A stretch of DNA of 64,000 nucleotides from positions 72,478,001 to 72,542,000 of the forward strand of contig OX597818.1 in the NCBI GenBank assembly GCA_951406725.2. Direction: 5' to 3'. This document shows, in pieces, positions 11,805 through 63,155 of this stretch. The notes under the pieces were generated by a model. That model ran no database searches, was not told the origin of the DNA, and was given only the letters and a program-made list of their open reading frames with translations. This stretch comes from Octopus vulgaris. Taxonomy: Eukaryota. The number at the start of each line of letters is the position of its first letter. Positions within the stretch are counted from its first letter, which is position 1. A program made the position numbers and the translations under genes.

Positions 11805-12683
11805 TATTTAAATATAATAAATAACAATAGGGTAATAAGAATGTATTATTACCAGTGGCCTAGCACAAAAACGAATTAGTCATTAGACTATATATTATTC
11901 ACATAGAAATACAATAAGAGACTTTCAAATAGGGATCATTTTTGTGTTAGGCCACTGGTAATAACAATTTCCTATTACCCTATTGTTATTTATTATGTTT
12001 AAATATTCTTTGATAGATTTGTTCGAAATTTTTACCGGCATCCTCTCTGTCGCCGGGTATAATCTGCGTCTGCTCAGTGGTCTGAAAAGTTAGAATATAC
12101 AGGCAGTTAGTTTTACATGTGGATTTGGCGGCATGTATATTTGAAACCTAAAGGCTTCCCACTGATGAAGACTGGCCTTCAGCGAATATTTTTTATGCTG
12201 GAAATAGTTAGAAACCATGGTCTGGGAAATAATTGAGATGGTAAACGTTTTTAATTTTCATTCCCTTCGAGAATTTACCCTTATTTGGTGGTTTGAGTTT
12301 TCTACTGCTCTTTCTAGCACAAGGCTTTCCTATTTGGAAGCCTCTTATTGTATTTCTATGTGAATAATATATAGTCTAATGACTAATTCGTTTTTGTGCT
12401 AGGCCACTGGTAATAATAATTTCCATTCCTTTCGAGAATTTATCCTTATTTGGTGGTTTGACTTTTCTACTGCTCTTTCTAGCACAAGGCTTTCCTATTT
12501 GGAAGCCTCTTATTGTATTTCTATGTGAATAATATATAGTCTAATGACTAATTCGTTTTTGTGCTAGGCCACTGGTAATAATAATTTCCATTCCTTTCGA
12601 GAATTTATCCTTATTTGGTGGGTTGACTTTTCTACTGCTCTTTCTAGCACAAGGCTTTCCTATTTGGAAACCTCTTATTGTAT
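11805..12683 (+). mobile_element. Non-coding PLE-type/retrozyme-like insert: inverted 5' arm, hammerhead, 165-bp tandem tail
   Basis: 11805-11933 is inverted relative to 11939-12005 and 12329-12417; tandem units start at about 12253, 12418 and 12583; flanked by (TA)n and (TC)n(TA)n. Confidence 0.75.
12156..12228 (+). ncRNA. Minimal type-I hammerhead ribozyme, loop III CATG
   Basis: ttccca-CTGATGA-a-gactg..ttcagc..gctgga..tagtt-a-GAAA-C-catg-G-TC-tgggaa; 6-bp stem I, GUC triplet. Confidence 0.88.
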
Positions 12684-12771
12684 CTCTCTCTCTCTCTCTC
12701 TCTCTCTCTCTATATATATATATATATATATATATATATATATATATATATATATATTTATATTTATATAT

Positions 12772-13034
12772 GGAAGCGCTTAGCTTAGTGGTTAGTATAT
12801 TGAACTCATGATCGTAAGATTGTAGTTTCGATTGCTGGACCGGGTGACGCGATGTTTTCTTGAGCAAGGCACTTCATTTCACGTTACTCCAGTACTTCCA
12901 GCTGGTAGAAAGGAGTAATCCTGCGATTGACTGGCGTCCCGTCCAGTTGGGGAATATGTATGTCTTAACACCAGGAAACCGGGAAACCTTATGAATCGGT
13001 TTCATTCGAAGAGCTAAGTTTACATTTACCTTTA
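12772..13034 (+). mobile_element. tRNA-derived SINE
   Basis: A-box tagcttagtggttag, B-box-like gtttcgattgc, core ttcttgagcaaggcacttcatttcacgtt, tail tttacatttaccttta. Confidence 0.75.
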
Positions 13035-14946
13035 TACACACACACACACACACACACACACACACACACACACACACACACACACACACACACACACACA
13101 CACACACACACATAAACACACACATACACACACATATAGTATAGAGGTTTAGTCCGCAAGTGACCTAAACGATTAGGTATGCTATGTAAGTACTCTAACG
13201 GATTACTAGGGGTCCAAGGTTGTAGCCGAGACAGTAGTTATGGAGCCATTGTAGATTTCCGATATAGTGGATTGGAAATCCAAATGTAATGAACATTATT
13301 TTAAAGCTGTTTCTACTATAAGATGTGGTTGAATATGAAGTGCGCTTTATTTGGGTAAGTTACCTTTTCAGAACATACAGGCGTTATGATTAAGAAAGTT
13401 TAGTTATGAAAAGTTCTATCCAAGGAGAGAAAAAAAAGTATGCAAATATCCGCATGCACTTAGGCTAGAGTTAAAAGGGAAATATATGGGTAGATGCGCA
13501 AACTCATTCATATGCATATATATAGACACACACATGTATAGACACACATATGCACACACACATACACACACATACACACACACTCACACACACACACACG
13601 CGAAGATAAATATATTCGGAAAAACAATCACATATACAGAGCAGAGATAGGTGATTTGCGTTTTTACCTATATAGTCATACGTGTGTGGTTAAGTACTCA
13701 TATATGTCCGCCACCACAGTTGTTGGAGAACAAGAAGTTTGTAAGGAACAGGAAGGGAGAACAAGAAATTTGTAAGGCCATTGAGATTGTTTAGACATAA
13801 GACATGAATCGTAGACTATTGGGGTAAGTATCGGTCACCCCAGTGCTTAGGCTTTTTTTTTAGTTTTTGCCTTGGGATGTGCGTCCGTTCGTGTAGCTTG
13901 ACATTTTATACACGAACTAAACAGAGGTCTAATCAAGGAAATCTGAACGTTTATACACATATGTACACATACGCACACGCACACACACACACATACACAA
14001 ACTCTCTCTCTCTCTCTCTCTCCCTCACCCCGCCAATTTAAACATACAACCGAAAGAGCTACTAATAGATTCATTTTATCATGATACTTGAACCGTATAG
14101 GTATATGTGTGTGCGTGTGTGTAAACGTATAAATATCTGTATATGTGTATGCGTGTATGTGTTCGCATATATAAATATTTGTGTGAATCTGTACACATCT
14201 TTATATTTTTTCTCTGATTCATAGCTTGAAATTAATATATAGATACCATGTTTATCTTTCCAGTTATTCCATACGTAAATGCCCTGAGACGTCTTCATAG
14301 AAACCACCTAATAAGTAATTAAGTACATGAATGAATAGTAAACTGATCCTATATAGTCTTTCCTTTTTAATGCTTATAATTGATACATACTCACATTTTA
14401 CCTATTTGGGTTATGATAAATTTTATTTTTATACAACATAACAATATTGTTTATAAACAATCACCCATAGTGCCCCAAGATAAAATTTCCTCTGTATTAT
14501 CATCCTAGGTTTCTTTGCGTATTGCACCTTTAACTGGTAATTAACATCATGATTTAAAGTCTTCTCCTACCCAGCCTCTCTTTATAGAGAGCTACTTTAC
14601 ATCCAATTGACTACTAGTATCTTCTTTCCTCCCCTAGGAAAAGGGATACATATGATAATATTTATGACAATATCTAGCCATGAGCTGTCAACTCACTCTT
14701 GCCCTTTATTCAAAAGAGATACAGTCTTCTAGTCTTAGATTTAGTAGTTGATAAAGAGATAAATGAATTAGAAATAAATTACAGTCCTTTACAATGTTAT
14801 GACCCCGACGGGCTTCTGCGATTCATGGAAGTGTAGTCTATTCTTAGCCAAAATAGCGACATGATTTTCTTCCATCTTCTTGCACAGTTAACGTATTTGA
14901 GAAAAACTATATTAATGTGTCCGACTGGTTAAAATTCTATTTATTT

Positions 14947-15037
14947 GTGCATCTGAAGATGGCGCTGCATTTAAATTCATGTAATGATTGCATTCTTCAA
15001 TTAAATGGAGCCGCGTGAAACAGTCGTACAGCATCAC
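14947..15037 (+). ncRNA. Decayed hammerhead motif at the end of a probable PLE relic (~14400-15064)
   Basis: CTGAAGA 14953, long stem II (gcgct-catttaa/ttaaatg-agc-gc), GAAA-C-agtc-G-TA; stem I poor; followed by (TA)n. Confidence 0.5.
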
Positions 15038-60520: not shown

Positions 60521-60840
60521 CTCGTGAAGACGTGGCTTAAAAAATAGAACAAAGAGATGGAAATATACATTTTTATCAATGAAAACTTCAAATATATCTT
60601 AGCTTTAACAAAAAGAATATTGCACAATAGTGTTTTTTTCTAATTTATATATTTTATATATTTATATTGTGAAATATGATTTAATACTAAATTAAATTTT
60701 TCTCTGTAATTTTGACGTTATATTCCCTAATAGTATCATAGTTATATTCCCTAATAGTATCATATATATATAATTATATATATATATATATATATATATA
60801 TATATATATATATATACTAACAATAACGAAATAACGAACA

Positions 60841-61415
60841 ATTTTGGATGGAAATTCATGAATACCTCTCCTGAAAGCACATGTTTTTAGTGGCTTTATT
60901 GTCCATCCATAGACCATTACAAATACGATTTGCAATATGCATGGATTTAAGGGAAGTCATTATTACGTATTCGTTTCCTTTTGCATCTTTTCTTTCTGCT
61001 CTTATATTATTTAGTCTTCCTCTCTTTTCTTCTTCTTACCCACATACGCCTACTTGCACAAATCAAGATACAACATAAAATACTACCTATATACTCCCTT
61101 CTGTACTACTTCTATATATCTATCTCTATGATCAGTCAAAATATTCAAAGGAACTGCTCATAAATCTCACAGAACCTTCTGTTTCGTGTAAGTTGGTAAA
61201 TATCCTTTAGCTAAACATTGGATACAACCAGAACACTAATGCAATTCTTGCCTGAATAAACAAATACCTGTAATAATGGCTCCCCTTCAAATCAATCGAC
61301 ATTGCAAATCGTATTTGTAGCGTCTTACGGATGGAGAATGCAGTCACAAAAATATGTGCTTTGTGGAAATGTACGAAACAATGCATTAAAGTGTTTATGA
61401 ATTTCCATCCAAAAT
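60841..61415. repeat. Old inverted-repeat pair next to (TA)n
   Basis: 60841-60970 vs 61263-61415 (attttggatggaaattcat / atgaatttccatccaaaat; tacaaatacgatttgcaat / attgcaaatcgtatttgta). Confidence 0.7.
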
Positions 61416-62399
61416 TTCCAGATACTGCTATATTTATTCTACGATATACCGGCACCAGACTAGTACATTTTCATAAAATTAGTCTGGAAGATTGGAATAA
61501 TAATAATACCATAGGAGCATTTTATAAGCGTACAGAAAAACGTTCCTCATATATATGGCCAGTAAGGGTCATAGAATCATGAAGTTACACACCCCATTAG
61601 ATTTTGAATGTTTTAAAATGCTAAGGTTCATGTATGTACCTGATAAACAGGGTTTTTTCTGATGATGTATTGTCTCCATTAATCAATTAAAAATTCACTG
61701 GAAGCAGCTGCAGTGAATTGACACACCATCCATCTGTTGTTATTTATTCATTTATATATATATATATATATATATATATATATATATATATATATATATA
61801 TATATATATATATATTCAGCAGAAACCTCAGTACAACCAAGAATGAAATAAAGAGGCAACTTTCATCAATAAATATCTTCCACAACTCAATATGAACACA
61901 TAACATAATACAGAACACTACTAACCATTCACTACCACTAAGCCCCATATACCATTCACATTACAGATCTATATCTACCCTAATTGCACCCAATCCAGAA
62001 TTACTTACCTCCCTTATTTATAATCTTTTTACCCGGGGACTAGTAGACCTGACACCGTCCAGTAATCGGTGTACATTCAAAGCAACGATTAGTAACTTTA
62101 TGAAACCGGTATGCTTTTAAATCTCTTTAGCAATTCACAATAATGGCTTTTAGTACTTTTTTTCCTACCTCAGTTAATCTGATTATATATATCTATCGTT
62201 ATTTTTCATAGAATGTATTTTTTGATTTCCAGTGTGCATTTTCACTTATTTTTCTTCTTACTTTCCCCTTCCATTTCCACGTGTATATAGTTTCTATTTT
62301 CTTTTAGTAACATATTTCTATCATATGTATGTATATATATATATATATATATATATATATATATATATATATATATATACATGCATAAATGTATGTATA

Positions 62400-63155
62400 T
62401 TTTTTCAATGTGTATAAATAACAAGGACAAAATAAATAATTACCAGGGTAGCAAAAATTCACATAAGTGCCAAGGACATTACAGCCTACTTATAAAGGTA
62501 GACATTCTAGGGTTAAGAGGAATGTTTTTGAAAAACATGGATAACATAAGAAACGGAGTCAAACGCAGGTGTTATTCAAATCATTTATACTTCCAACATA
62601 TGTTCCGAAGAAAGAAATGAGATTATTGCGGAGGGAAAAAATGATGCTAAACACTGCAAACATCTCGTCAGGGAAAAAGAAAAGGGGAACAAAACACATT
62701 AATAAGCCATTTTAACCGAATGTGATTACCCCGTAAATGATGAAGGGGAACGCTAGCAAGATATTTTTTTAAAAATCGTTAATAGATTTAACATCAAAGA
62801 TAATTTACAGAACGAGAAGGAGGAGAAAGAAAGAAATTAATAGAAAATTAAGAGTGGGAAAAAGCAGTGTGATAGATGAATGGGAATAAAGTTTAAAAGC
62901 GTGGAAATAGATATATGTAGTGTAAATGAAATCTATTAATGGTTCTCAAAAAAATAACTTGCTAGCGTTTCCCTTCATTCGGTTAAAATGGCTTATTCAT
63001 GTATTTTGTTTCTCCTTTTTTCTTACTGATGAGATTATTGCATTTTCTTATATCATTTTTATTCCCTCCGGAATAATCTCAATGCATTCTTCGAAACATA
63101 TGCTGGAAGTATAAATGATTTGAATAACACCTGCATTTGACTCAATTTCTTAATT
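62400..63155. mobile_element. Inverted-repeat insert with a decayed hammerhead in each arm, loop III ATAT
   Basis: Arms 62547-62792 and 62927-63152; plus arm CTGATGA 63026..GAAA-C-atat-G-ct-ggaa; minus arm ttcc-CTGACGA..GGAA-C-atat-G-TT-ggaa. Confidence 0.72.

Follow-up and report, generated by a model that had tools for sequence, protein, structure and literature searches.

Type I hammerhead ribozymes with a short helix III and palindromic loops have been described from Penelope-like retrotransposons, with dimer folding and with many families in a single genome (Cervera and de la Pena, 2014; PMC4209133); the same source describes a U3-A8 core variant, inverted and solitary copies, and low activity in vitro. 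Cleavage as dimers was shown by Lunse, Weinberg and Breaker (2017), as told in two reviews (PMC6765202, PMC6466107). A weak helix III with a palindromic tetraloop, through which two copies fuse their helices III, is also reported for satellite 2 of newt and axolotl and for avocado sunblotch viroid (ASBVd) (Forster et al., 1988, cited in PMC4209133; PMC7229834), and the short repeats of animal non-LTR (long terminal repeat) retrozymes, which are related to Penelope-like elements, carry type I hammerheads (PMC7229834; bioRxiv 10.64898/2026.07.22.740005). Outside ribozymes, the dimerisation initiation signal of human immunodeficiency virus 1 (HIV-1), a short, lineage-variable loop palindrome that biases partner choice (PMC3187697), may be seen as the nearest precedent for palindrome-driven partner bias, by analogy only, since this signal acts in genome packaging as a kissing loop and not as a ribozyme helix.

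Here we describe the hammerhead motifs of a 64,000-nucleotide (nt) window of the Octopus vulgaris genome (contig OX597818.1, positions 72,478,001 to 72,542,000; coordinates below count from its first letter), which is AT-rich animal DNA, rich in simple repeats. An initial annotation had named eight motifs with a different palindrome in each loop III, and had proposed that these palindromes form a self-recognition code. In our hands the motifs (Table 1, named below by a loop position) are type I hammerhead motifs, predicted from their sequence to cleave themselves after UH. They share with the Penelope-like hammerheads of PMC4209133 the type I order, a very short palindromic helix III, a long helix II and a short helix I, as well as the U3-A8 variant, the many families, the mostly solitary or inverted copies and the proposed dimer cleavage. 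What sets them apart from the forms described there is a very abundant 4-nt-loop form with a long helix II (~59,000 pattern matches), 5-nt interrupted palindromes and a C4 core variant. Whereas satellite 2 and ASBVd, as tandem satellites or viroid multimers, have one or two types of loop, we find dozens of dispersed families with at least 13 palindromes, and unlike the animal non-LTR retrozymes as described, no named motif of the window lies in a tandem array. We consider it quite probable that these are Penelope-derived type I hammerheads whose palindromic helix III lets identical copies cut as a double hammerhead, and whose loops drift without forming a code.

Excess and pairing bias of the loop III palindromes

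A strict core pattern with a C-NNNN-G loop was counted over the 2.8-Gb assembly, with the reversed pattern as control. It matched 18,316 times with 10-40 nt between the core halves (1,524 in the control) and 40,530 times with 41-70 nt between them (1,593 in the control). For each search, the sequence surrounding the first 100 matches listed was taken, and the pieces were merged into a sample of 158 segments (1.33 Mb, one contig) holding 230 pattern hits; removal of the 23 hits with other than C-G closing pairs left 207 C-G-closed motifs. The 23 were set aside as noise: two have palindromic loops, and none has both helices.

The loop is a Watson-Crick palindrome in 138 of the 207 motifs and self-complementary in 179 when G.U pairs are allowed, where composition-corrected chance would give 7% and 17%, respectively. 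Shuffling the columns 2,000 times yielded on average 24 palindromes and never more than 39; the background of the window itself is 101 palindromes among 1045 4-mers that follow GAAAN. The excess is also seen when motifs are grouped by identity, as the majority loop is palindromic in 42 of 71 clusters at 75% identity (52 with G.U) and in 66 of 105 at 85%. Comparison of the palindromic fraction with chance was the check proposed by the initial annotation, and on this genome sample its outcome is clear: self-complementarity is kept far above chance. Motifs that combine a helix III of 1-2 base pairs (bp) with a self-complementary loop, by which dimer-type hammerheads are recognized, are present in the sample, and the reading of the palindromic loops as dimer-forming fits both the literature and the present computational tests. 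A structure-based scan found 120 matches versus four in the reversed sequence, with forms that include loop-less motifs and loops of 2, 5 and 6 nt, mostly self-complementary.

A second line of evidence comes from loops that have lost a Watson-Crick pair. Strand-symmetric decay of a base pair yields G.U and A.C equally often. Genome-wide, in the class with a long helix II, the outer loop pair is G..U in 3,092 matches (control 250) versus A..C in 1,008 (control 75), and the inner pair is U.G in 3,787 (control 65) versus C.A in 554 (control 58), two wobble classes out of four being covered by these counts; the sample has G.U and A.C in a ratio of 48 to 8. The bias at the inner pair therefore points to pairing with a second RNA, since adjacent inner bases cannot pair within one loop, and pairing of the palindromes between RNAs is likely to be under selection. 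We found no counterpart of this asymmetry in the text of PMC4209133 available to us. Strand-biased mutation or RNA editing as a source of the G.U excess was rejected because 11 family alignments, which form a modest sample and include the ribozyme stems, show no matching strand bias in the surrounding element sequence (77 versus 97 private and 34 versus 43 shared transitions).

Two further forms of the motif deserve mention. A genome-wide pattern count for 5-nt loops (25,979 versus 4,344 in the control) was discarded as unusable, because 16 of the 30 loci checked belong to a loop-less minimal hammerhead family misread by the pattern; this very abundant family (loci L246-L269) has a G/A variant at positions 15.2-16.2 and is absent from the scans of the window. 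Genuine 5-nt loops, at 8680 and 8238 in the window and among loci L241-L270, are interrupted palindromes (TCAGA, TCCGA, TCTGA; CCAGG): complementary bases flank a variable middle base, the pattern that a dimer helix with a mismatch at its centre should give.

Proposed cleavage as dimers and its alternatives

We propose that the motifs originated in the terminal repeats of Penelope-like retrotransposons of many families, and in non-coding derivatives of these. Two identical copies in one tandem transcript would swap strands via the palindromic helix III and cleave as a double hammerhead, the natural partner being the second repeat of the same element, which would change in step with the first. 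Because the partner would be a copy of the same element, the loop need only pair with itself, and any palindrome would serve. Lineages would drift between palindromes mainly through G.U forms that still pair (GATC-GATT-AATT, ACGT-ATGT-ATAT, CCGG-TCGG-TCGA), and activation across families, which would need a match of both helix I and loop, would be an uncommon by-product and not a selected code. That these families cleave as dimers, the biological role of such cleavage, and drift as the source of the loop differences are our inference.

The predicted energies separate the two forms of helix III widely, from +2.4 to +2.9 kcal/mol for the 2-bp helix of a monomer to a mean of -9.6 kcal/mol for the 8-bp helix of a dimer. 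Unconstrained cofolding of two copies gave a double hammerhead with an intermolecular helix I for the motifs at 12216 and 23146; helix I is intermolecular because one copy provides the core and helix II, the other UH and the 3' strand of helix I. In the predicted homodimer of the minus-strand motif at 29770-29811, helix III grows to 15 pairs across the cut site, which would block cleavage.

Several points weigh against cleavage as dimers. Unconstrained cofolding returned the catalytic dimer for only two of six motifs, the other four giving partly or wholly different dimers, with a different duplex for the motif at 38147. The sample behind the palindrome fraction was picked by the C-NNNN-G pattern and is a single stretch of one contig; most G.U counts come from a few amplified families; and the finding of a distant near-twin for eight of 42 G.U loops and none of seven A.C loops is too small a comparison to stand alone. 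Only eight of the 158 sampled segments match the Penelope-like element of the window, and most named motifs are without an adjacent coding frame, so that the Penelope-like origin of most of them is assigned by architecture. In published experiments, efficient cleavage is reported for invertebrate retrozyme hammerheads whose helix III has 2 bp and a tetraloop (PMC7229834); a lizard Penelope-like hammerhead is reported to have required protein to cut, with no reads ending at its site, and hammerhead catalytic mutants to have had no effect on insertion in vitro (PMC11167929); and one of nine Xenopus dimer constructs cleaved (bioRxiv 10.64898/2026.07.22.740005).

The efficient retrozyme hammerheads and the protein-dependent cleavage in lizard would fit an account in which the motifs cut as monomers, aided by contacts between loops I and II or by an element protein, with the palindromes as inherited leftovers; so would the lack of a same-strand partner for most motifs of the window. 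Yet an inherited remnant should show neither the preference for G.U over A.C at the inner pair (3,787 versus 554) nor the compensated double steps seen within clusters (CTAG/CATG, AATT/GATC, CCGG/TCGA), and we consider this account improbable. The harmless catalytic mutants, together with the prediction in the same report that the protein is a dimer (PMC11167929), would instead suit a palindrome selected for RNA-RNA pairing that joins element RNAs for reverse transcription or insertion, with cleavage as a secondary matter. Such joining would leave an identical pairing signature, but tens of thousands of copies retain the full catalytic core and UH along with the palindrome, the predicted dimer sets both cores in cutting geometry, and no direct evidence favours a joining role, which makes it unlikely in our view.

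Loop sequences within and between families

The proposal of a code would have the loop selected as a self/non-self signal, with families diverging in palindrome to avoid mutual activation or parasitism. Part of the data agrees with it. Close copies retain their loop (25 of 27, 11 of 13 and 11 of 14 relatives in three families), so that loops track families, and 13 of the 16 possible palindromes are in use. Different palindromes are predicted to pair poorly, with a mean of +0.16 kcal/mol for a mismatched helix III versus -9.6 kcal/mol for a matched one, and the HIV-1 palindromes show that such sequences can bias partner choice (PMC3187697). Motifs that share a strand within 6 kb of each other are often unrelated (of 24 neighbour pairs in the sample, 15 scored as unrelated and nine as related), which would give occasion for cross-talk.

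Mixed pairs were evaluated with 30 cluster representatives, giving 870 ordered pairs. The mean predicted penalty of a mixed dimer is 8.75 kcal/mol for helix III and 6.68 kcal/mol for each helix I. The loop is shared in 90 of the 870 cross-cluster pairs, of which 32 also form a stable helix I and 58 fail there; because of these 58, helix I carries much of the discrimination. Family-specific cleavage of dimers, as the initial annotation had suggested, is thus plausible in that mismatched loops are predicted to cost ~8.8 kcal/mol, but a second recognition site, helix I, had been overlooked. Mixed dimers are predicted to be disfavoured, through two helices, as a consequence of divergence.

The mapping between loops and families is many-to-many. 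Nine of the 42 palindromic clusters have AGCT as majority loop, and the probability that two clusters have the same loop is 0.089 (75% threshold) or 0.147 (85%), so that loop use is more clumped than even use (0.0625) would give. Among 12 clusters with at least three members, four contain at least two Watson-Crick palindromes, and mixed clusters are bridged by G.U forms, GATC and AATT by GATT, and ACGT and ATAT by ATGT. These intermediates are predicted to pair with both neighbours (ATGT at -8.5 with ACGT and -7.0 with ATAT; GATT at -7.9 with GATC and -6.1 with AATT), which, like the part played by helix I, speaks against a code. In 27 links among 52 of 120 subfamilies, selected for an intact helix I and a self-complementary loop, a filter that depresses all helix rates, the per-site difference is 0.10 for the loop, 0.13-0.14 for helix I, 0.16 for helix II and 0.21 for the aligned sequence, and the loop is identical in 18 links versus 10.8 expected. 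This slow divergence of the loop looks like constraint, not diversification.

Two predictions of a code therefore failed in the sample, an unshared single palindrome per family and a loop that diverges faster than the other helices, and the idea of one selected palindrome for each family does not hold: loops are shared by unrelated clusters, switch within clusters and change at a lower rate than helix I and the flanks. That a family code has been selected is unlikely, and as an explanation of the loops, with families diverging to escape one another, we rate such a code as decidedly improbable. No published hammerhead loop code or heterodimer test was found in the open literature. A bolder version also seems unlikely to us. 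In it, the ribozyme pairs of dozens of families would be orthogonal to one another, with loop III and helix I serving jointly as the address and the G.U loops as bilingual stepping stones between addresses, and selection would maintain this orthogonality; it could do so, for example, because dispersed motifs, in their tens of thousands, would otherwise cut rival elements or the transcripts of the host.

Motifs of the window, a Penelope-like element and what they mean

Each of the eight 4-mers named by the initial annotation stands where it was placed (for the minus-strand motifs at 40865 and 29778 the number quoted is the low end of the loop), but the frame given for them, a closing pair followed by UH, holds for only four. 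Four of the eight motifs are intact, three are damaged copies and one was misread. The type I core (CUGANGA...GAAA...UH or its U3-A8 variant) with helices I and II is present at 12216, 23146, 38147, 29781 and, with a weak helix I, 56508, and it is broken in the copies at 40865, 59246 and 63098.

Table 1. Hammerhead motifs and the Penelope-like element in the 64,000-nt window.
Feature	Position	Strand	Description
5'-truncated hammerhead, 5-nt-loop family	8195..8250	+	Family loop CCAGG, here CTAGG
Young Penelope-like element	8424..11312	+	Identical 300-nt terminal direct repeats, 670-aa stop-free frame, DKT motif
Hammerhead-like motif, left repeat	8631..8693	+	C at core position 4, 5-nt interrupted palindrome TCAGA, 6-bp helix I
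Identical hammerhead-like motif, right repeat	11220..11282	+	2,589 nt downstream of left copy
Intact type I hammerhead	12156..12228	+	Loop CATG 12216-12219, C-G closing, UC site after 12222, 6-bp helix I
Decayed hammerhead	14953..15028	+	Loop AGTC (15022), in GATC/GATT/AATT/GGTC family
Intact type I hammerhead	23094..23156	+	Loop GATC 23146-23149, frame C-GATC-G-UA
Decayed hammerhead	23692..23724	+	Loop AGCA (23718), one change from TGCA of closest relative (89%)
Decayed hammerhead-like motif and near-perfect inverted copy	27563..27674 (duplication 27556-27674)		Loop ACAT, no UH
Compact hammerhead, U3-A8 core variant	29770..29811	-	Loop CCGG 29778-29781, A-U closing, UU site
Intact hammerhead, unlisted in the initial annotation	38086..38160	+	Loop CATG 38147-38150, U-A closing, 7-bp helix I
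Damaged hammerhead	40862..40931	-	Loop AGCT 40865-40868; 3-nt deletion takes closing G and UH, by alignment to intact relative
Hammerhead with weak 3-bp helix I	56438..56517	+	Loop ACGT 56508-56511, frame C-ACGT-G-UA
Damaged hammerhead	59157..59252	+	Loop GTAC 59246-59249, C.A closing mismatch
Damaged hammerhead	63026..63104	+	Loop ATAT 63098-63101, C instead of U16.1

Relatives elsewhere in the genome keep the hexamer of loop and closing pair in most cases, CGATCG in 25 of 27 closest relatives of the motif at 23146, TCATGA in 11 of 13 for that at 38147, and ACCGGT in 11 of 14 for that at 29778-29781. Close relatives of the motif at 56508 have ACGT or ATGT, with ATAT also in the same cluster, and its family is connected with that of 63098 (ATAT) via relatives at ~72-75% identity. 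The alignments listed for the damaged copies contain intact palindromes in one of two relatives for 40865, one of one for 59246 (CGTACG) and two of seven for 63098. The loop does not differ each time, since the intact motif at 38147 has CATG, as does that at 12216, within another hexamer, and the supposed 4-nt loop CTAG at 8238 was a misreading of a 5-nt family loop, which reads C-CCAGG-G-UA in seven of 14 relatives and CTAGG in two of 14. Of the three decayed motifs described as non-palindromic, those with AGCA and AGTC sit in families with palindromic relatives, whereas for ACAT (27563) the search of the genome for its family found its own inverted copy only and no other relative.

At two places the motif lies within direct repeats that flank a Penelope-like frame of reverse transcriptase and putative GIY-YIG endonuclease, which links the two. 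One is the element at 8424-11312, whose repeats hold the only same-strand, same-family hammerhead pair found in the window (8637/11226); the other is a sampled GATT/GATC pair, 4,842 nt apart, around a frame 41% identical to that element, and of a family related to the motif at 23146 at 72% identity. The GIY-YIG match at 8424-11312 is weak (E 0.014, below the cut-off). Its DKT motif and C-terminal endonuclease fit the Hydra clade as described in PMC8557442, as judged without a tree; a reading of the element as a Naiad was rejected, since Naiads carry an N-terminal endonuclease in that description. Copies 99-100% identical over the repeat occur elsewhere in the genome, and the young subfamily of its hammerhead has C at core position 4, where older relatives have U. 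A search of sequencing runs for this element listed none from RNA that contains it.

The named motifs of the window are solitary or lie beside inverted copies on the opposite strand, and they have no same-strand tandem partner. A truncated inverted copy lies beside the motif at 23146 (23015-23068) and a partial one beside that at 56508 (56051-56170; loop 56123, minus strand); others are found at 8351-8419 and 27605-27674, and neighbouring truncated inverted copies have been described for Penelope-like elements (PMC8557442). Short tandem units of 534-561 nt are present in the sample. Directly downstream of the hammerhead at 12216, a 165-nt unit is repeated 2.6 times with 97% identity (12252-12687), and no core was found in the unit; elsewhere (G000:C2:14631957-14738661), eleven near-identical hammerhead copies on one strand, ~9-13 kb apart, are probably a segmental tandem array.

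A scan of the window with Rfam was uninformative: of its 208 matches, the 150 listed include no hammerhead model and are, with one exception, microRNA models on simple repeats. Simple repeats also swamped a general repeat finder, which yielded nothing of use beyond the 300-nt direct repeat and a single inverted pair. The frames at 239-475, 42933-43917 and 51223-51592 resemble fragments of Tc1/mariner transposases, 239-475 and 43681-43917 being 82% identical, and the broken frames at 16046-16834, 31821-32207 and 53671-55313 resemble the reverse transcriptase and endonuclease of non-LTR retrotransposons.

The architecture of these hammerheads is already published, and to that extent the finding is mostly ordinary. 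The genome serves here as a natural test, in which changes at the inner pair that are compatible with pairing outnumber equivalent mismatches by ~7:1. This bias gives genomic support for a function of the dimer in vivo, which in vitro work had left uncertain, and the families supply natural matched and mismatched pairs for tests of ribozyme orthogonality.

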